From IMG/VR virus record IMGVR_UViG_3300007169_000025, positions 32,001-96,000 of that record: a DNA stretch of 64,000 nucleotides, one strand, 5' to 3'. The stretch is from a virus. The notes under the pieces are model-generated. The model was not told where the DNA came from, did not search any database, and saw only the letters and a program-made list of their open reading frames with translations. Both the position numbers and the translations under genes were made by a program. Position 1 is the stretch's first letter. Every line of letters starts with the position of its first letter. Shown here piece after piece: positions 970 to 60,542 of this stretch.

Positions 970-3900
970 ATGTCAACAACAAAGCGTACTGTTATCAAAG
1001 CTGACGAAGAGCTGGTTATCAAAGGCAAACTTACCATTGAAGGTAACGTTACTCAGCTTGAGCAAACAAATGTTATTACTGTTACAAATTTAGCAGGTAA
1101 TACCTTTACTGTTAATAGTGTTGACCCCGGAAATCCAGCAGCTAGTAACACTACAGCAATATTAAGTCTCAACAGCTTTAATACTCAGGCTAATCTTTCT
1201 TATAGCAATACCACAGGCAAACTAGTAATTAGTGTACCATTACAGGTTGCTGCTAATTCAAATATTGAAACTACTGGTAATATTATAGCAGGGTGGTTCC
1301 ACGGTGATGGCAGTAACATCACAGGATTATCAACAACAATAGTATCCGAAGGTACAAATCTATATTTTACAAATGCTCGTGTTAGAGCTGCTATTACGCA
1401 TGTAGATGCCGGCGGCGATGGCAGCTTTAGTTATAACGCTTCAACAGGAGTGTTTACATACACTGGTCCAAGTGCTAGCGAAACTCGCGCACATTTTAGT
1501 GCCACTGACGGACTTGTTTATAATAGTACCACAGGTGTATTTACTTTAGATAGTGTTGCAGCCGGTAATGGTTTAGTTTATTCAAACGGCGTATTTCATG
1601 TAGGCGCCGGTGACGGTATTACTATAGGACTTAATGATGTTGGTGTAGATGGCACAGTTGTTCGCACGAGCGGCAATCAAGATATATACGGCGTCAAAAA
1701 GTTTGAAAACGGTATAGTATTAGCTGCTAATATTAATATTGTACCTGAAACAAATAATACTTCTTCAATTGGTAACAGTACAAATTGGATTAAAGAAGTA
1801 TATGCAAACGTTATTCATGTTTCACACTTAAACATTGGCGCCGATGCTAACTTAGAAGATGTACATACAACATTCTATCCCGGCACAGCCGCTAATGCAT
1901 TAGTTACAAGAACCTCTGATGGTTTAACATTTACGCATAATACAACCGGCGCATATTATAAAATTAATGTTGGCGACGGATTACAAGTTGACGGTAACGG
2001 TAATCTTGCAGTTAATAATACTGTAATTAGAACTTCTGGTGATCAAAGTATCGCAGGCAATATTACACTTACAGGTAATCTTGCTATTACAGGTAACTTA
2101 GATGTTACTGCAAATATTAATAGTTTAAATGTTGTTGATTTAAATGTTCAAGACACTCAAATTATTCTTAATGCTAATGCCGGTTCAGGTGCAAATAGTA
2201 ATATAGCAGTTAATAGAGGTAGTGATCCTACAGTATACATTAAGTGGAATGAAAGTAATGACACTTGGATGTTTACAAATAACGGCGTTGCAGAATATCC
2301 AATACCTGTTAGCACAGATGACTTAGATGAAGGTAATAATAATCTTTATTACACTACTGATCGTGCTAATAGTGCAATAGATGATTATCTTGTAGGCGGG
2401 AATGGTTTAACATATTCAACTGGGAACATCAGTGTAGGCGCAGGTGATGGCATTGTTGTAAATGCTGATAACGTTTCAGTAGACGCAACAGTGGTTCGTA
2501 CTAGTGGTGATCAAACCATTAGCGGCACCAAACATTTTACTGGAGAATTAGTAATACCGTCAACAATGCCCACTAGCAATAACTCACTTTATGTTAATGC
2601 AGGCAATTCAGCAGTTTTTGCTTATGTAAATGGTGTGCATGTTCAGCTAACGGCTGATAGTGATGTTGGACAAGTTGAAGATGTTGGTAACACTGGTATC
2701 AATGTTTATGCAGGTTCTAGACAGCAGATACTTGGAAATGCTAACGTATTCTTTCACGGTATTAAAAGTATTGATGCAGGAACATATTTAAATATTTCTG
2801 AAGCAAGCAATGTTATTACCATGTCTGGTAATATCACTGCAATTAAAAACGAATTTAGTGTTTCAAACCTAAGTGGCTTTGGAAATCTAAGTTATGCAAA
2901 CGGCGTTATTAGTTATACTGGTGCAAGCAATGCTGATGTTAGAGGATTGTTTAGTGGTACAGGTCTAATTAATGTTAACCCTAGCACAGGTGTTATCAGT
3001 ACCACCGCAGACAATTACGGTAATTGGAGTGTTCAAACAGATAGTGGTGCCGGCGCAAAAACAGCAGTCAGTAGCGGGCATACACTAACACTTCAGGGTA
3101 CTTCTGGAATCGTTGTTACAAATTCTGGTAATACTGTTTCTATTGCAATGGCTGTTGCTAATGCTGATATTACAGGTGTAACAGCTGGTGCAGGCCTAAC
3201 AGGCGGCGGAACATCAGGTACAGTTACATTAGATGTTGGTGCTGGTGCATACATGATTGTAAATGCTGATAATATATCAGCAAATGCAGCCAGTGTTGCT
3301 ACTGCAAACGTTCTTGTTGCTAGAGATGCAAATGCAAACGTCTCAGCTAATAACTTTGTTGGTACAACTGCAAACGTAGATTTGGTTGCAGGTAATAATA
3401 CATTAAGACTTGACACAACCGGTCAAACAACTATACCTGGCAATGTAATTCCAAATGCTAACGGTGTGTACAGCTTAGGTAGCCCAACGGCTCGTTGGAA
3501 AGACTTGTATGTAACATCAGCTTCTATCTACATTGGCGATGAAGCACTGTCTGTTAACGAAGATGGTAACATTTTATTTGGTAATGATCAATTAGTCACA
3601 TCGCAGCAAGTAACTGGCGGTCTTGGACTAGTAGTTTCAAATGCCTCTCTGTCAGTAGGACAAGGTAACGGTATTATAGTTACATCTGAATCTGTATCTG
3701 TTAATGCAGGTAACGGTTTAATTATTGCTGCTGATACGGCTTACCCTGTTGTTACAGGTAACTTTAGTCCAAATGTAAGTTTAGAATATTATGCTAATAG
3801 CTCTGAAACAGGTAACGTATTAATATTTGAATATGCAACACCTGCACTACTTGGATTCCAAACAATAAACTCTGGTAATAGTTCATTAGCAACGGATTCT

Positions 3901-51970: not shown

Positions 51971-52927
51971 TTGAGAGAATCTATGAAATTATCAATAAAA
52001 GAAGTAGTTTCTATTGCTGGATCTAGAGTAGACAATCCTCATAGAGGTTTTCCTGAGCGAAATTCGTCTCGATATATCGAGCAGTATTTTAAACCTTATT
52101 TTGAACCAAAGTTTAAAATAGACTTTGACACAACTAAGCCGATATATACTATTGGATCTTGCTTTGCTCGTGAAATTGAGGATTGTCTACACGAGCTAGG
52201 ATATAATGTTCCTACAAAAAGATACAAGGCTCCAGAAGAAATTGCACAAGGTGGCCGACCAAATTTTGGACTCAATCAATTTAACCCCGGCTGTATAGGA
52301 CAAACTATCCTAGCAGCATTAAGTGATAAAACAATACAACCTTGTATATATCGTACCAAACAGGGTGAATTGATAGATCTCTTATTGGTTGGTTCACCCG
52401 CAGTATCAGCTAATAGAATATTTCAGCGCCATACAGAAATCTCTAAGTTATATGAGGGCTTAAAGACTGCAGAATGTCTTGTTTTAACATTGGGACTCAC
52501 TGAGTGTTGGTATGATACTGAAAATAATGTATGGTTAAATCGTGCCCCGCCCCTAGATGAACAGACTCTAAACAGTGATAGATTTGAATTTAGGATACTA
52601 GATTATAACGAGTGTATTGAGGCGTTGGAACCAGCACTTTCTATACTTGATGATTTAAAAATTAAAACAGTAATAACAGTATCTCCAGTACCGTTGCAAA
52701 CTACTTTTACAAACAGTGATTGTGTTGTTGCAAATGAGTTTGGCAAGTCAACTTTGAGAGCAGTAGCAGGACATTTTACTAATAAATATAACTATATGGA
52801 CTATTTCCCCGCATATGAAATGATCAGACATTTAGGAACAAATGCATATAGGGAAGATAATATTCATGTTAGTTTAGAATTAGTAAAAATCATAACAGAT
52901 TTTATGATTAACAGTTATAGTAAGTAG
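51971..52927 (+). CDS. GSCFA-family (SGNH-like) protein
   Basis: IGSCFA, LTLGLTE, TVSPVPL, YFPAYE and D..H motifs. Confidence 0.85.
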   Translation: MRESMKLSIKEVVSIAGSRVDNPHRGFPERNSSRYIEQYFKPYFEPKFKIDFDTTKPIYTIGSCFAREIEDCLHELGYNVPTKRYKAPEEIAQGGRPNFGLNQFNPGCIGQTILAALSDKTIQPCIYRTKQGELIDLLLVGSPAVSANRIFQRHTEISKLYEGLKTAECLVLTLGLTECWYDTENNVWLNRAPPLDEQTLNSDRFEFRILDYNECIEALEPALSILDDLKIKTVITVSPVPLQTTFTNSDCVVANEFGKSTLRAVAGHFTNKYNYMDYFPAYEMIRHLGTNAYREDNIHVSLELVKIITDFMINSYSK

Positions 52928-52937
52928 AGATAATTTT

Positions 52938-53717
52938 ATGAAAGACAATTTAACAATTAAAGATATAGGACTTGAAGTAATCAAGTGGCCTATTACAAAA
53001 GTTAGAGTTGGTAAAGTTGACGACCGCTGGCTAGTTGAATATCGTAGAAAAGCAAAATGGGTACTTGACCGTTGGTGGTGGTTTGATGATGGTAAGTATA
53101 TTGACTATCGTGAAGCAGTCGCCCGGGCGCAGGCTATAGCCGCCGCAGGATATATAACAACTATTAGAAACGCCACACCAACTTTTGATGTAACACCATA
53201 TGATCCGGATGAACCGTTGGTTGCGTCAGTACCAGCACCGCCAGCACCTCAGGTAGTAAAGCGTGTTGTTACAAAGCAAGCCGCAGCCGCAGCCGCCGCC
53301 CCGGGGTTTGCTGCATGGAAGGCGACTCAAGGGGTTGACTTAGACGGTGACGGGGATATTGACGAGGATGACTTTAAGTTGTATAATGCAGGTGATCGTT
53401 GGGATGCAGCCTCATCTGGATGGGACAATCCTCAAGATTTAGACGGCGATGGCGACATTGATGAAGATGATTATCGTCTATATGAAGCAGCAAAGCGATG
53501 GGAAGATAAGGGTTGGGAAAATCCTGAGGACTTAGACGGCGATGGCGACATTGATGAAGATGACTATAAGCTGTATGAATCCGCAAAGCGTTGGGAAGAA
53601 CTTGGGTGGGATAATCCTGAGGATTTGAACAACGACGGTATCATTGACATTGAGGATTATAAGTTATATGTTCAGGGCGACCGTTGGGACAACGAAAAGG
53701 ATAAAGGTAATGAATAA
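52938..53717 (+). CDS. Protein with four EF-hand/dockerin-like Ca2+-binding repeats
   Basis: DLDGDGDIDEDD x3 plus DLNNDGIIDIED, spaced 31-33 aa apart. Confidence 0.75.
   Translation: MKDNLTIKDIGLEVIKWPITKVRVGKVDDRWLVEYRRKAKWVLDRWWWFDDGKYIDYREAVARAQAIAAAGYITTIRNATPTFDVTPYDPDEPLVASVPAPPAPQVVKRVVTKQAAAAAAAPGFAAWKATQGVDLDGDGDIDEDDFKLYNAGDRWDAASSGWDNPQDLDGDGDIDEDDYRLYEAAKRWEDKGWENPEDLDGDGDIDEDDYKLYESAKRWEELGWDNPEDLNNDGIIDIEDYKLYVQGDRWDNEKDKGNE
53340..53670 (+). repeat. Tandem 93-99 nt intragenic repeats
   Basis: The identical 32-mer ttagacggcgatggcgacattgatgaagatga occurs at 53439 and 53532; diverged copies start at 53340 and 53625. Confidence 0.85.
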
Positions 53718-53868
53718 CGACAAACCGAGAGCAATTTTTAGTATTGAAGATCTAGACATCATTAAAGAAGCATTATTATTTTATGTGCAGGTTGCCGATG
53801 ACCTAGAACCTACATTACAAAGAAAGATTGTTAATCTAACACACAGACTAAACCGAGGTAAAAAGTGA
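53710..53868 (+). CDS. Small hypothetical protein
   Basis: Start/stop overlaps on both sides. Confidence 0.55.
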   Translation: MNNDKPRAIFSIEDLDIIKEALLFYVQVADDLEPTLQRKIVNLTHRLNRGKK

Positions 53869-54530
53869 GCGAAGTAAATTTAATTGGCGTAACCAAGCCT
53901 AGTGCTATTACAGATTGTCATACTCCTGGTGATCTAGTTGCATATGCAGCACGAGTTAGCAATCCGGCTAACCAAAGCAACACACAAACTGCACCAAAGC
54001 TGCTAAAGTATCTCATCAAGCACAAGCACTGGAGTCCATTTGAGATGGTGCATATCACAATGGAAATTAAGACCACACGTGATATTGCTCGTCAGATTCT
54101 ACGCCATCGTAGTTTTGCTTTCCAAGAATTCAGTCAGCGTTATGCTGTAGCAGAGAATGTAGGCTGTAAGCGCGAAGCACGTCTACAAGACGAAAAGAAC
54201 CGCCAGAACTCGGTTGAGGTTAATGATCCAGAGCTACAAGAAAGCTGGAACATGGAACAGGCTAAGGTTCGTAATGCTGCCATGAACGCATATAAGTGGG
54301 CACTGGATAAAGGTATTGCCAAGGAGCAAGCTCGTGCAGTACTGCCAGAGGGCTTAACTGAAAGCACACTTTACATGGCCGGCAGTTTGCGTTCTTGGAT
54401 TCATTATATCGATCTTCGTGCAGCAAATGGCACACAAAAAGAACACATGATCATTGCAGAGCAATGCAAGAAGATTGTGCTAGAACATTTTCCAATGCTA
54501 GACGAGTACTGGGCTGATGCTGAAGGTTAA
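53865..54530 (+). CDS. thyX: Flavin-dependent thymidylate synthase
   Basis: HWSPFE, QILRHRS..FQEFSQRY and EQARAVLP motifs. Confidence 0.96.
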   Translation: MSEVNLIGVTKPSAITDCHTPGDLVAYAARVSNPANQSNTQTAPKLLKYLIKHKHWSPFEMVHITMEIKTTRDIARQILRHRSFAFQEFSQRYAVAENVGCKREARLQDEKNRQNSVEVNDPELQESWNMEQAKVRNAAMNAYKWALDKGIAKEQARAVLPEGLTESTLYMAGSLRSWIHYIDLRAANGTQKEHMIIAEQCKKIVLEHFPMLDEYWADAEG

Positions 54531-54684
54531 TACACCAGACGAAGCCGTCATTAGACTTCATGATATTGCTCGGCTAATTGAGCGATCATACTCTGATCCT
54601 GTTGGAGTTAACCTTGCAAAAGAAATTCGCTCTGTAGCAGACGAGCTAAATGAACTGATTAAAGATCGTGACAGCAAAAATTGA
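54517..54684 (+). CDS. Small helical hypothetical protein (55 aa, not in ORF track)
   Basis: MLKVNTPDEAVIRLHDIARLIERS...; bridges thyX and the mini-DnaE with overlaps. Confidence 0.55.
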   Translation: MLKVNTPDEAVIRLHDIARLIERSYSDPVGVNLAKEIRSVADELNELIKDRDSKN

Positions 54685-55255
54685 TTTTGACGTAGATATT
54701 GATATGGCTAACCGTGAGGACTTCTTGCGGTTAGTTAATCACATACCTGCTAGCATTAAAGCAGATGACGGCACTTATTCAAAACATAACACCGGAGTCT
54801 ACTTTCAAACTATTCCTACTTTTCCGTTAGAGGGATTCAGCAGCATTGATTATGAAACTGCCGAAGAAGATGGTTGGTTTAAAGTAGACATCCTAAACAA
54901 TGGCATTTATAAAGATGTGAGGGACGAAGCACATCTTACACAACTAATGGAAGTAGAGCCCTTATGGGAACTGCTTGAGCATGAAGAATTTGTTGAAAAA
55001 TTATTTCATATTAGTAACTATTCAAATATTCTAGCGCAGTACAAGCCTACTAGTGTCGAACAGTTAGCTATGATTTTAGCAATTATTCGCCCGGGTAAAA
55101 AGCATCTAATTGGTAAGAGTTGGGAAGATATTGCCAAACAGGTATGGGTGAAACCCACTGATGGCAGTTACTATTTTAAGCACAGTCACGCTATAGCATA
55201 TGCTGTTGCTATTGTTGTGCAAATGAATTTAATTTGTGAATCGGCTTACGCTTAA
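54668..55255 (+). CDS. Miniature DNA polymerase III alpha (DnaE, family C) catalytic core
   Basis: Collinear DnaE motifs DFDVDID, KHNTGVY, GWFKVDIL, KP.S...LAIIRPG and YYFKHSHAIAY in only 195 aa. Confidence 0.82.
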   Translation: MTAKIDFDVDIDMANREDFLRLVNHIPASIKADDGTYSKHNTGVYFQTIPTFPLEGFSSIDYETAEEDGWFKVDILNNGIYKDVRDEAHLTQLMEVEPLWELLEHEEFVEKLFHISNYSNILAQYKPTSVEQLAMILAIIRPGKKHLIGKSWEDIAKQVWVKPTDGSYYFKHSHAIAYAVAIVVQMNLICESAYA

Positions 55256-55629
55256 CTAGTCTTGCGTATTAGTTGAATACTACGCCGTTTGATTCGCTTC
55301 TTTAATAGATTCTGTAGGCTTGTAACTGGCCCAAATAGTATTTCAACGTCTTTAAAAGTAAACGTTTTTAAATAAGGATGAAACGGTCGCATTTCGTAAT
55401 GTAGAAATACATCTATAGGTATTTGCCTATTACTTTCCCACCACCAAACTTCACCTAACTCAAGAAACTCTTTTTTAACTTGTAATGTGGGCATTGCATC
55501 TACGTCGTAGAATGTAATAATGCTGTTATCGTGGTTTACAACAATGCCTAAATATTCTTGTCCGCAGTATGAAATTCCTGTTAGAAATTCTAGCTCGTTA
55601 TAATTACTAATATTAGTTTTATCAATCAT
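55252..55629 (-). CDS. Conserved hypothetical protein
   Basis: 125-aa ORF (WWWESNRQIPI); GGTAAATA 6 nt upstream of the ATG. Confidence 0.7.
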   Translation of the reverse strand: MIDKTNISNYNELEFLTGISYCGQEYLGIVVNHDNSIITFYDVDAMPTLQVKKEFLELGEVWWWESNRQIPIDVFLHYEMRPFHPYLKTFTFKDVEILFGPVTSLQNLLKKRIKRRSIQLIRKTS

Positions 55630-55703
55630 TAAAATTATTTACCAAAAATGCTCTGTTAACTTCTACAGATTTTGAATCGCTGTCAAATGTGATAAATACT
55701 GTT

Positions 55704-56513
55704 ATGAGCAGCTACGGTGACCAAAAACTATACCTTTACGATGATGTAATAGAGCTTGTTGTCACTGTGGATAATATTTATGTGGACAACAGACCTATGA
55801 ACCTAAGAAAGCTGGTAGCCCATAAGGGTTTAACAAATACAATTTTGTTTAATATAAGGGATCGCGATCGCAGATTACAAAATGTATTTTCTGATACGTT
55901 GCGTATCTATATGGTACATCCTACTACTAAACGAAGAATTTTTACCAAGCCCTTAGTTAATACTTCAGATGTAGGTAAAGTAAAGCTAGTACTTGAAGAA
56001 GCTGATTTAGCAAATATTGAATCAGGCTTATATACACTTTATGTTACCCGCAGTACACAAGAAAATGAGAATTTGCCAGTTTACAACGATCAAAATAACA
56101 ACATTAAATTTGATATTGAGATCACAGACCAAACTGGAGAAGAACCTGTTCCTACCCAAGCGGAACTTACTTTTACACAAACAGCAAATACAATGTTAGG
56201 CGATACATCCAATGTTATTGTTAGTAGCGCACTTTACGGTAATTTGGATCGTAATTTCCCTAACGCCCAACATAGTATTGCATTTTACACCACACAGTAT
56301 ACAGGGAATATAACAATACAAGCAAGTTGTTTGCTTGGTGTTCCGGACCTAGATGATGCTAGTAGCGATTGGTTCAACGTTGAAACAATTGCGCTCAGTA
56401 ACAGTAGTGTTGTTAAGCACCATACATTTAATGTTAACTGCAATTGGATTCGTGTTAAACACACACCAGACGACACAAATGGAACACTAGATAAAATCCT
56501 ACTAAGAAATTAA
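55704..56513 (+). CDS. Putative virion structural (beta-sandwich) protein
   Basis: GATAAATA (55691) lies 5 nt before ATG 55704; C-terminal G.ITIQAS..DWF..WIRV..G.LDKILLR motif. Confidence 0.6.
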   Translation: MSSYGDQKLYLYDDVIELVVTVDNIYVDNRPMNLRKLVAHKGLTNTILFNIRDRDRRLQNVFSDTLRIYMVHPTTKRRIFTKPLVNTSDVGKVKLVLEEADLANIESGLYTLYVTRSTQENENLPVYNDQNNNIKFDIEITDQTGEEPVPTQAELTFTQTANTMLGDTSNVIVSSALYGNLDRNFPNAQHSIAFYTTQYTGNITIQASCLLGVPDLDDASSDWFNVETIALSNSSVVKHHTFNVNCNWIRVKHTPDDTNGTLDKILLRN

Positions 56514-56958: not shown

Positions 56959-57435
56959 ATGGATATAAGTGTTTACGGTACTAAGAATAAGAAGCTAATC
57001 AGAGACCTCTCTGACGCAGCGGAATTTTATGCGAACATCTTGCTTGATCCTAGAATGGCAAGGTCCATCGAATTAGATATTGAGATAGAAAAATCGCTAG
57101 AAGTTGAAGGCATGATGATCAGCGAGGAAGATAAAAAGAATCCTCGATTTTTTACTATTCAACTTAGGAACAAAAAAACAGATGATGATATCTTTAAAAC
57201 CTTAGCACATGAGATGGTGCATCTAAAACAATATGCTAAGAATCAACTTTATAAAAAGTTTGTAACTGCAAAAAATAAAAAGGGTGAAACCTTACAGACT
57301 TCCTGGGAAGGAAATATTTGGAAACCTAAGCGTAATGAGCATAAGTACTTTGACAGTCCGTGGGAAGTAGAAGCATACGGTAGAGAAGTTGGTCTGTACC
57401 AGCGATGGGTAGAATATAAAAATTATGTCGATTGA
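56959..57435 (+). CDS. Zincin-like metallopeptidase
   Basis: TLAHEMVHLKQY (HExxH) and PWEVEAY. Confidence 0.82.
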   Translation: MDISVYGTKNKKLIRDLSDAAEFYANILLDPRMARSIELDIEIEKSLEVEGMMISEEDKKNPRFFTIQLRNKKTDDDIFKTLAHEMVHLKQYAKNQLYKKFVTAKNKKGETLQTSWEGNIWKPKRNEHKYFDSPWEVEAYGREVGLYQRWVEYKNYVD

Positions 57436-58405
57436 TACGGTAGTAGAAAAAGTACATAGACTACTATTAGATAATTTGCCTATTAGGACCACTCGTACTC
57501 CTAGTGGGTGGATGACTTTTGACTGCCCAATGTGTAACGATAAACGTAAGCGAGCCGGTATTATAACCAGCGGCGCAAAAATTTCTTATAACTGTTTTAA
57601 TTGTAAGTATACTACGGGTTGGAGTCCTACTCCTGGTATTGGTAAGCGTTACAGAGATTTAGCAATTAGATTAGGTGCAGATCAAAAGCAAATACATGAT
57701 GCTCAGATGGATCTGCTAAAGTACAGTGAAGAGCTTGAAAACGAAGAAATTGAAAATTATGTTTACAGTCTTAATAAGTTTAAGGTAATCGATCTTCCTG
57801 AACATGCAGTGATGATAGAAGATTTACCTGACGACCACGAAGTAAAAGTCTATGCTAAACAGCGTGGCTTATATGGATTGTATCCACTACTTTGGTTTGG
57901 CGCTGACCCATTGTATGCTAAACGATTAGTTGTACCATTTACATATAATGGTGAACTAGTTGGTTGGACTGCTAGACACATTAGTCCGCCTGATAAAAAA
58001 ACACCTAAATATTTGCATAAAATGAGCAGTGGATATGTCTTCAATGTAGATAGATTTGTTGATACTAAGCGCGAACTAGTAATTGTTGTTGAGGGTGTAG
58101 CTGATGCTATCATGATTGATGGTGTAGCAGTATTGGGCAATCATGTTACACCGGAGCAAGCTCATTTGATAAGCAAACTGGGTAATAGGATTATTTTATG
58201 TCCTGATCGCGATGACCCGGGCAAAGAGCTAATTGACGAAGCACTTGCGTTGGGTTGGGAGGTAAGTTTTCCTCCTTGGGAAGATGACATAAAAGATGCA
58301 AACGATGCTGCAAACAAATATGGTCGTTTGCTAACGGTAGCTAGTATTATTAAGCACGCCACAGATAATAAAATCAAAGCACAAGTTAAAGCAAAGATGT
58401 TATGA
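57425..58405 (+). CDS. DNA primase (gp61-like)
   Basis: CPMC..CFNC zinc ribbon; TOPRIM motifs VEG..DA and PDRD..G, plus KDAND. Confidence 0.9.
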   Translation: MSIDTVVEKVHRLLLDNLPIRTTRTPSGWMTFDCPMCNDKRKRAGIITSGAKISYNCFNCKYTTGWSPTPGIGKRYRDLAIRLGADQKQIHDAQMDLLKYSEELENEEIENYVYSLNKFKVIDLPEHAVMIEDLPDDHEVKVYAKQRGLYGLYPLLWFGADPLYAKRLVVPFTYNGELVGWTARHISPPDKKTPKYLHKMSSGYVFNVDRFVDTKRELVIVVEGVADAIMIDGVAVLGNHVTPEQAHLISKLGNRIILCPDRDDPGKELIDEALALGWEVSFPPWEDDIKDANDAANKYGRLLTVASIIKHATDNKIKAQVKAKML

Positions 58406-59166
58406 GAAATAAATTATACACAACCGGTTGTAGTTTTACATACGGGCACATTCCAGATTCGTTAGCAAACGACCCGCAGGCTATTCAAAACTATACCAAG
58501 GAACCTTGTCCATGGACTTGGGCAGGACATATGAAGTCCCATTTTGACGAGTGTGTAAATGAAGCATGGGGTGGGGGCAGTAATCATAGAATGATACGCC
58601 GCTGTCATGAGTTTTTTAGTAATATAAACGATCCAGAGAATTGGGTAGCAGTAATTCAGTTAACTGATCCTTATAGATTTGAATACTTTGATAATGTTAT
58701 ACAGAACCATGTGGGTGTATTTCATTCAAACGAACATGTACTGTTAGACGATAAAACATCCAGATCAAAGACTATTGATTTAGACGATACGGTTCGTAGG
58801 TCCAAAACACCGGTAGCATATAGGATGCTGTTTTTAAATTATGATTTAATTGCAATAGAACTTTTTGAAAAATTGATTGCATTAACAAGATTTTTAGAAA
58901 GTAAAAATATTGAATATTTTGTTACCGCCATGTCAAACAAATGTGCGCCTGAAATAATCGCTAACGATTGTTCAAGCAATCACGCCAAGGATCTATTTAA
59001 GTTGTTGGATTTTGATAAAGTTGTTAGGTTACGGCCATTAAGCCATCAATTAGAAAACGAAGATGACTTTGAATCACCCACTGATCGGCATCCAAGTAAG
59101 CACGGGCATGAAAAGATTTACAGATACATATATAACCACCTGAAGAGTCGAGGACTAGTAGCATGA
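58402..59166 (+). CDS. SGNH-hydrolase-like protein
   Basis: GCSFTYG, N.A.GG.SN and D.HPS..GH blocks. Confidence 0.7.
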   Translation: MRNKLYTTGCSFTYGHIPDSLANDPQAIQNYTKEPCPWTWAGHMKSHFDECVNEAWGGGSNHRMIRRCHEFFSNINDPENWVAVIQLTDPYRFEYFDNVIQNHVGVFHSNEHVLLDDKTSRSKTIDLDDTVRRSKTPVAYRMLFLNYDLIAIELFEKLIALTRFLESKNIEYFVTAMSNKCAPEIIANDCSSNHAKDLFKLLDFDKVVRLRPLSHQLENEDDFESPTDRHPSKHGHEKIYRYIYNHLKSRGLVA

Positions 59167-60542
59167 GCGAAATAAAAGAATATACAGATGATGTGCAGGA
59201 ACTGTTTGTAAAGTTTCTAATCAGTGACGCTGACTTATTTGCTCGTTGTCAAAACATTATTAAACCAGAATTTTTTAATCGTAAGTTTAAAACTACAGTT
59301 GAACTTTTAAAGGGACACAGCGAGAAATATAACAGTATCCCTACATTAGAGCAGATTAATGCTATTGGTGGCCTAGACTTAGAAGTTATTCAAAACGTAA
59401 CACCTGACCATCAAAACTGGTTTATGGATGAGTTTGAGACTTTCTGTAGACATAAGGCATTAGAAAAAGCTATTATTGAAAGCACAGATTTGCTTGAAAA
59501 GCAAAACTATGGTGAAGTAGAAAACAAGATCAAAGCCGCAGTACAAACTGGGCTTGTAAAAGATTTAGGCTTAGACTATTTTGAAAATCCCAAGGAGCGA
59601 CTTGAGTGGATCAAGAAGCAAGCAGGTGCAATAAGCACTGGTTGGAAGGGCATTGATCAGAAACTGTATGGCGGCCTAAATCGAGGTGAAATCACTGTAT
59701 TCGCTGGCGGATCTGGTGCAGGTAAGAGTCTGTTCTTACAGAACTTTGGCGTCAACTGGAGTCTTGCAGGGCTAAACGTTGTTTACATAAGTTTAGAACT
59801 TAGTGAGCAACTTATTAGTATGCGATTAGACAGTATGGTCAGTGGACATGCTGCTCGTGAAATCATGCGTAATATCGAAGACGTTGATCTTAAAGTTCGT
59901 ATGAAAGGCAAAGGCAAGGGTAAATTTAGAATTAAACAGATGCCCAGCGGTATCAATGCTAATGATATCCGTGCGTTTTTGCGTGAATATGAAATCCAAA
60001 GCGGTACCAAAGTGGATGCATTGCTAGTTGACTACTTAGATCTAATGATGCCTATTGCTGCAAAGATTAGTGCAGAAAACTTGTTCGTTAAGGACAAGTA
60101 TGTATCAGAGGAATTGCGTAATCTAGCAGTAGAGCGTAACTTACTTCTAGTAACAGCATCGCAGCTAAATCGTGCAGCGGTAGAAGAAATTGAGTTTGAC
60201 CACAGTCATATTGCTGGCGGCATCAGTAAAATTAACACATCTGATAATGTTATCGGTATCTTTACAAGTAATGCTATGCGTGAGCGTGGACGCTATCAAA
60301 TTCAGTTTATGAAAACAAGAAGCAGTAGTGGTGTAGGCAGTAAAGTAGACCTAAAATTTAACCCCGATACACTTCGTATTGAAGATTTAGAAGAAGGCGA
60401 AGAGGATGCAAGCACAGTTACAACTAAGGGGCTTGTTGAGCAGTTAAAGCGTAGTGGTGCTATTAAGGCTGAAGAACCACAAGCACAGGAAACAGTCAAT
60501 TCCAGCCTTGCGTTGATGGACTTCATTAAAGGTAAAAAGTGA
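59163..60542 (+). CDS. DnaB-like replicative helicase (gp41-like)
   Basis: GGSGAGKS, SLELSE, VDYLDLM, TASQLNR and KTR motifs. Confidence 0.94.
   Translation: MSEIKEYTDDVQELFVKFLISDADLFARCQNIIKPEFFNRKFKTTVELLKGHSEKYNSIPTLEQINAIGGLDLEVIQNVTPDHQNWFMDEFETFCRHKALEKAIIESTDLLEKQNYGEVENKIKAAVQTGLVKDLGLDYFENPKERLEWIKKQAGAISTGWKGIDQKLYGGLNRGEITVFAGGSGAGKSLFLQNFGVNWSLAGLNVVYISLELSEQLISMRLDSMVSGHAAREIMRNIEDVDLKVRMKGKGKGKFRIKQMPSGINANDIRAFLREYEIQSGTKVDALLVDYLDLMMPIAAKISAENLFVKDKYVSEELRNLAVERNLLLVTASQLNRAAVEEIEFDHSHIAGGISKINTSDNVIGIFTSNAMRERGRYQIQFMKTRSSSGVGSKVDLKFNPDTLRIEDLEEGEEDASTVTTKGLVEQLKRSGAIKAEEPQAQETVNSSLALMDFIKGKK

Follow-up and report, generated by a model that had tools for sequence, protein, structure and literature searches.

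The C-terminal unit of a split minimal DNA polymerase III alpha in an uncultured T4-like phage

A split minimal form of the DNA polymerase III alpha subunit (Pol III alpha) has been described in group 2.2 jumbo phages (Iyer, Anantharaman, Krishnan, Burroughs and Aravind, 2021, Viruses 13:63; PMC7824862). According to that paper, the split enzyme occurs alongside a family B polymerase, its proposed roles are the synthesis of one strand or repair, and the minimal forms are proposed to resemble the ancestor of the bacterial replicase (PMC7824862). Our search of the literature on this family returned no biochemical or genetic test of any member and no paper later than Iyer et al. (2021). For the C family of polymerases as a whole, three aspartates (D401, D403 and D555 in E. 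coli DnaE) are absolutely conserved, and the position of D405 is occupied by Asp in DnaE and by Asn in PolC (Timinskas et al.; PMC3919608).

We analyzed a window of 64,000 nucleotides, the whole stretch of DNA under study, which is part of a 104,017-bp IMG/VR record with a CheckV completeness of 28%. An earlier note on this DNA had singled out a 195-aa protein resembling a condensed DnaE. The object of that note is genuine, has already been published, and is only half of an enzyme: the window protein is the C-terminal unit (C-unit) of the family of Iyer et al., and its gene is genuine and under selection and is not a new discovery.

The C-unit gene and its relationship to DnaE

The features of the locus are collected in Table 1. 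The earlier note had assigned the protein to the interval 54517-55255; the end of this interval is correct, whereas its start is that of a separate 55-aa ORF. The match to phrog_11778, annotated 'DNA polymerase', spans residues 4-192 of the 195 residues of the C-unit, and this same name is already attached to the family in PHROGs and in several RefSeq records. Matches to the C-unit were found in 96 isolate phages with 37-54% identity; the proteins of PA5oct, Atu_ph07, RaK2, 121Q and GAP32, which fall within this range (37-54%), are of equal length and have the same flanking genes. The family is large: a search for proteins of near length returned 6167 clusters at 90% identity, nearly all of them 188-205 aa long, and an exhaustive search of the 50% library returned 416 representatives. 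A scan for promoters and terminators at the locus gave sites no commoner than in shuffled sequence. One 271-nt contig from a metatranscriptome library covers positions 54504-54773, but we did not count it as expression because the library may contain DNA.

Table 1. Genes at and around the C-unit locus, in window coordinates
Feature	Position	Strand	Characteristics
GSCFA-family protein	51971-52927	+	PF08885, E 2.9e-40
259-aa repeat protein	52938-53717	+	
thyX	53865-54530		Pfam Thy1, E 6e-42; precedes 55-aa ORF
55-aa ORF	54517..54684	+	between thyX and C-unit, overlaps of 14 nt and 17 nt
C-unit of split minimal Pol III alpha	54668..55255	+	195 aa, GTG start; phrog_11778, E 2e-69
125-aa gene	55252..55629	-	convergent with C-unit, overlaps its stop codon; phrog_11637, E 4e-35
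DNA primase	57425..58405	+	phrog_47, E 1.4e-41
DnaB/gp41-like replicative helicase	59163..60542	+	phrog_19, E 8.6e-74

Searches with the single C-unit sequence detected the FRPG segment only (Pfam DNA_pol3_finger, E 0.13; phrog_405, E 6e-4), and phmmer of the C-unit against PDB gave no match. We then used a profile built from an alignment of 88 diverse representatives, each at most 55% identical to the window protein. This profile matched nine distinct PDB sequences, all nine of which are Pol III alpha (best E 1.2e-5), and aligned C-unit residues 54-140 with residues 538-641 of E. coli DnaE and residues 152-179 with 740-768. The AlphaFold2 model of the C-unit was obtained with a pLDDT of 96.4 and a pTM of 0.88, and the top 15 chains in a Foldseek search with this model were all C-family polymerases. 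By VIA-align, the model superimposes on PolC (3f2c) with Z 9.9 and an rmsd of 3.5 over 191 aligned residues, on residues 457-838 of Taq Pol III alpha with Z 9.9 over 192 residues, and on residues 395-781 of E. coli DnaE (2hnh) with Z 8.7 over 186 residues. Over the C-family chains the alignments cover 186-193 of the 195 C-unit residues, and the first unrelated chain follows at Z 3.5. Structure prediction and superposition on the DnaE palm, which the earlier note had proposed as a check, thus show the palm and fingers fold of Pol III alpha (Z 8.7-9.9). The likeness of the C-unit to DnaE is genuine and beyond chance.

The C-unit encodes the Mg2+-binding palm strands and part of the fingers. Five DnaE-like motifs had been reported for it in the DnaE order, and all five are present: C-unit residues 6-12, 39-45, 69-76, 126-143 and 168-178 correspond, in the same order, to E. 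coli residues 400-405, 510-516, 550-557, 624-641 and 754-764. At the level of single residues, D8, D10 and D12 pair with D401, D403 and D405, K72 and D74 with K553 and D555, R141-P142 with R639-P640, and K171..H174 with the FNKSH motif. In the 88-sequence alignment, D8, D10, K72, D74 and P142 are invariant and D12, H40, G43, R141 and H174 are near-invariant (conserved in at least 86 of the 88 sequences; D12 in exactly 86), whereas D6 is not conserved. A BLASTP alignment of a fused relative, P0172, with E. coli DnaE places the DxDxD of the family on D401-F-D403-V-D405; therefore the catalytic pair of the C-unit is D8/D10 and not D6/D8. D74, equivalent to D555, is the third catalytic aspartate. 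The statement that all three catalytic aspartates are kept thus holds in substance, with D8, D10 and D74 invariant, but the register in which it had literally been given (D6/D8) was two residues off. The presence of Asp at position 12 in 86 of the 88 sequences makes the C-unit DnaE-type rather than PolC-type in its DxDxD motif.

Selection on the gene was assessed by the method of Nei and Gojobori, using pairs limited to a dS between 0.05 and 1.5. Over 882 pairs the C-unit gave a median dN/dS of 0.144, the highest value being 0.35; the median indicates purifying selection among the homologues, a comparison that the earlier note had called for. With more than 80% of DnaE missing, the protein could be taken for what is left of a host dnaE that was captured and is now decaying, or for an inactive structural pseudo-enzyme. 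Such an origin is extremely improbable given that the catalytic residues are invariant in 88 representatives with no more than 55% identity to the window protein, that more than 6000 clusters keep to a length of about 190-200 aa, and that dN/dS is 0.14 and nowhere exceeds 0.35. The view that this is an intact, selected protein and not a decayed fragment is borne out by the invariant catalytic residues, the median dN/dS of 0.14 and the more than 6000 clusters of the same length.

The 195 residues of the C-unit span 387 residues of E. coli DnaE. C-unit residues 17-53 replace E. coli residues 412-537, a region in which Lamers et al. (2006) reportedly place the thumb, and about 89 residues, mostly of the thumb, are absent here. 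Residues 141-151 replace E. coli residues 642-739 of the fingers, with about 87 residues absent. The C-unit ends near E. coli residue 781, ahead of the (HhH)2, clamp-binding and OB elements. At the other end, it starts 7 residues before the DxD strand, so that the palm half preceding this strand, with its GS motif (GRGS at E. coli 361-364), is lacking; a complete Pol-beta-type palm with a GS motif on one polypeptide is not found in the C-unit. No PHP domain was found in the C-unit, in the 104-kb record, or in any of five fuller relatives. The earlier note had described the intervening stretches as cleanly excised in frame, which presupposes that a full-length DnaE was reduced; the small form may be either derived or ancestral, and few of its positions align with cellular DnaE.

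The separately encoded half of the palm

The fused relative P0172 is a metagenomic representative of 375 aa that came from the exhaustive representative search. Its residues 191-371 match the C-unit and its N-terminal part carries the sequence GVGRGSS, so that it joins an N-terminal unit (N-unit) and a C-unit in the order of DnaE in a rare single-chain form. P0172 aligns with residues 292-417 of E. coli DnaE without a break across the junction (BLASTP, E 3e-10), which shows that the N-unit and C-unit families correspond to adjoining segments of the catalytic core of DnaE. The fusion may be an artefact of assembly or gene calling; the closest relatives of its N-unit part (66% identity) are stand-alone proteins of 179 aa. 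A separate search for longer C-unit homologues yielded no fused or extended forms, which is weak evidence since the exhaustive search did yield P0172.

The N-unit family consists of stand-alone proteins of 163-185 aa (about 170 aa) that belong to Pfam PF07733 and have an invariant GVGRGSS; the profile of the family matches residues 319-392 of E. coli DnaE (E 5e-7). An N-unit is present in all nine of the fuller C-unit genomes tested, at distances of 11-184 kb from the C-unit. The approximate distances are 43 kb in PA5oct, 182 kb in Atu_ph07, 33 kb in GAP32, 31 kb in 121Q, 33 kb in RaK2 and 11 kb in Slickus01, and 147-184 kb in three IMG/VR records that are 71-100% complete. In PA5oct the two units are EST35_0288 and EST35_0220. 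In the 104-kb record to which the window belongs, itself 28% complete, no N-unit was found with PF07733, P0172 or the N-unit profile, nor was one found in four other fragments of 89-102 kb. For this phage we therefore infer the pairing from its relatives.

One gene of the record was considered as the missing N-unit and rejected. The NTP_transf_2 protein encoded at L177 1335-2135 (E 3.7e-5) is a complete, ordinary Pol-beta-type nucleotidyltransferase, and since the N-unit profile does not match it, it is not the missing N-unit. This stand-alone gene lies at G000 96834-97634, beyond the end of the window, and is unrelated to the minimal Pol III. Also unrelated to it is an 859-aa zeta-toxin-like/AAA kinase with a weak NT5C-like match, encoded at L177 5937-8516 (G000 101436-104015).

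The location of the N-unit bears on whether the 195-aa protein could be a self-sufficient minimal nucleotidyltransferase. It does have the three catalytic aspartates and a confident lone fold in silico, but it begins at the DxD strand, with neither the GS motif nor the nucleotide-binding helix, and in nine of nine fuller relatives the missing half has a conserved gene of its own, while in P0172 it is fused upstream. We consider independent action of this kind very improbable. The earlier note had favored a self-contained enzyme; this does not agree with the fuller relatives, every one of which encodes the GS-motif half of the palm apart from the C-unit. Among the three options that it listed, one subunit of a split polymerase is the correct one, with the other half of the palm encoded apart in all nine.

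A dnaE in two genes with distant halves is the hallmark of split-intein systems, in which the parts are rejoined by protein trans-splicing, as with the cyanobacterial dnaE-n and dnaE-c. An intein C-fragment has about 35 aa and an N-fragment about 100 aa. In the phage proteins the DxD strand is preceded by only 7 C-unit residues, and the last N-unit residue is equivalent to E. coli residue 392; these short ends leave no room for intein fragments and thus rule against splicing. The phage split site, at about E. coli 393-400, also differs from the cyanobacterial one. We give trans-splicing next to no credence.

Genomic setting and adjoining genes

The gene content of the window is T4-like and includes a tail sheath, a gp32-like SSB, UvsX, a primase and a gp41-like helicase. 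The C-unit belongs to a conserved block, in the order C-unit, reverse gene, virion protein, primase, helicase, and the same order was found in PA5oct, Atu_ph07, GAP32, 121Q, RaK2 and Slickus01. A family B polymerase was present in each of the five fuller relatives tested; it was not found in the 104-kb fragment, which is 28% complete. Slickus01 (L176, OQ508957.1), an Alishewanella phage of 141,644 bp, has both units as well as the small convergent gene. Because its genome is far below the 200-kb limit for jumbo phages, the split minimal Pol III is not confined to jumbo genomes. Near-identical DNA to positions 53865-56513 of the window was detected in freshwater, estuary, reservoir and aquaculture metagenomes, and 14 runs belonging to eight coded studies contained half or more of the words sampled from this interval, among them freshwater or estuary runs with 0.86-0.94 of the words. 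This indicates a wide distribution of the phage lineage in fresh and brackish waters.

Two further genes upstream of thyX are listed in Table 1. The GSCFA-family protein, which is encoded among the replication genes, represents a family that is unusual in phages. The 259-aa protein contains four DLDGDGDIDEDDY-LY-type repeats that resemble the calcium-binding loops of EF-hand and dockerin proteins; its Pfam matches are weak and it has no PHROG family.

The 55-aa ORF between thyX and the C-unit had been suggested as a partner of the polymerase. It has no tblastn match in 84 related loci and belongs to neither a Pfam nor a PHROG family. Five relatives, the closest ones with thyX still beside the C-unit (L007, L008, L009, L011 and L012), have nothing between the two genes, the gap being -1. 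Other relatives have different contents at this junction: L010 has an unrelated 218-aa gene (1339-1995), and in L005 the counterpart of that gene is broken into two ORFs of 103 and 101 aa (2520-3153). A contig from run X15 joins position 54512 to position 54680 of the window through 13 other letters; because it bypasses the ORF, it points to a near relative that is without it. The junction is variable, and the 55-aa ORF is an insert specific to this lineage and not a conserved part of the system, so the suggested partnership can be set aside. It may still be translated, because it overlaps both of its neighbors.

A different picture emerges on the other side of the C-unit. In all 84 loci, among them those of PA5oct, Atu_ph07 and GAP32, the next gene after the C-unit is the convergent 125-aa gene, which lies on the other strand. 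It was found in 89 isolate phages, always beside the C-unit, and its distribution over host genera is the same as that of the 96 phages with a C-unit. With a mean column identity of 59%, the protein is better conserved than the C-unit; its WW.ESNR.PI block is invariant and its C-terminal tail is basic. The dN/dS of the gene is 0.22. The AlphaFold2 model (pLDDT 76.5) has a small beta-barrel with a helical insert and the basic tail. In a fold search of this model the best Z was 4.9, with weak matches to Sm/SH3-like barrels and no clear fold match; no Pfam family was found for the protein, and Atlas gave no useful lead. The 125-aa protein may belong to the minimal Pol III system. A bolder and rather unlikely version of this idea is a three-part machine, in which the 125-aa protein is a predicted DNA- or clamp-tethering subunit or a regulator that would replace the thumb, HhH and OB elements, and the complex would extend primers. 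It would include, with the same rather low likelihood, work with the neighboring primase and helicase, loosely like that of Pol alpha-primase, ahead of the family B replicase.

Proposed function and comparison with known polymerases

We consider it probable, at about 0.85, that the ORF encodes the C-terminal unit of a two-piece minimal Pol III alpha of T4-like jumbo phages, which is likely to act as a templated polymerase of low processivity. From homology, fold, conservation, purifying selection, co-occurrence and the one fused form, we infer a heterodimer, its activity and its role. The C-unit would supply the strands with the three Mg2+-binding aspartates (D8, D10 and D74) and the neighboring K72, together with the finger helices that bear R141 and the K171..H174 (KxSH) motif. 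The N-unit of about 170 aa, encoded far off, would supply the other half of the Pol-beta-type palm with the nucleotide-binding motif GVGRGSS. The two units would associate non-covalently to give a heterodimer with one active site. The assembled enzyme of about 365 aa would have lost most of the thumb, and its fingers would be about 90 residues shorter; PHP domain, (HhH)2, clamp-binding motif and OB domain would be absent altogether. Because thumb, clamp-binding and OB elements are missing, such an enzyme is expected to be distributive or of low processivity; and with the thumb and the finger segment (E. coli 642-739) gone, templated synthesis is not assured. Its possible tasks in support of the family B replicase include primer extension or hand-off, gap filling and repair. 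The fixed place of the C-unit gene two genes upstream of the primase and helicase suggests work at the fork, that is, primer extension or hand-off.

The two units might instead assemble into a non-templated enzyme, such as a terminal transferase or the maker of a nucleotide-derived product. Many nucleotidyltransferases of the Pol-beta fold act in this way, and all of the elements that hold the primer-template in cellular C-family enzymes (thumb, (HhH)2, clamp-binding and OB) are missing here. However, the finger helices are kept, with a near-invariant K/R-S-H motif that matches the FNKSH segment of DnaE, which lines the site of the incoming dNTP. The gene lies within a conserved primase-helicase block, and the closest folds are those of replicative polymerases only. 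Non-templated synthesis is thus distinctly unlikely, and we retain the templated polymerase as the preferred reading. A two-chain minimal Pol III of about 365 aa would be by far the smallest catalytic core of a C-family polymerase described, and its reconstitution would reveal which parts of DnaE are needed for catalysis. The minimal Pol III also bears on why phages with a T4-type replicase keep a second polymerase, and on whether the bacterial replicase descends from an enzyme similar to these minimal forms, as proposed by Iyer et al. (2021).

The closest known system is the split minimal Pol III alpha of Iyer et al., with which the window copy shares family, length, flanking genes and a T4-like gene setting (gp32-like SSB, UvsX, primase and gp41-like helicase). 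Nothing essential differs between them; the phage that carries the window copy is uncultured and of freshwater or estuarine origin, and the 55-aa ORF lies upstream of this copy. Three observations are additional to the passages of that paper that we consulted: the rare fusion of the two units, the 125-aa reverse gene that is always next to the C-unit, and a carrier phage with a genome of only 142 kb. Group 3.2 jumbo phages (phage G type) also encode a C-family polymerase, but theirs is a full-length Pol III alpha. According to the same paper, it is host-like, has a PHP domain and serves as the main replicase (PMC7824862), whereas the enzyme to which the window protein belongs is minimal, split and, in the fuller relatives, accompanied by a family B polymerase.

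In cyanobacteria with a split DnaE the catalytic subunit likewise comes from two distant genes. In contrast to these, the phage units are without intein fragments, have another split point and are far smaller, and their association would be non-covalent. With E. coli DnaE (Pol III alpha, 1160 aa) the C-unit shares the Pol-beta-type palm strands, the FRPG segment and the FNKSH finger motif, but it is without the PHP, (HhH)2, clamp-binding motif, OB and tau-binding domain, and the GS-motif half of the palm of the phage enzyme sits on another polypeptide. The PolC of Firmicutes (3f2c) is the joint best structural match of the C-unit, with Z 9.9 over 191 aligned residues; the residue equivalent to E. 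coli D405 is Asn in PolC, whereas it is Asp in the phage family (D12, in 86 of 88 sequences).
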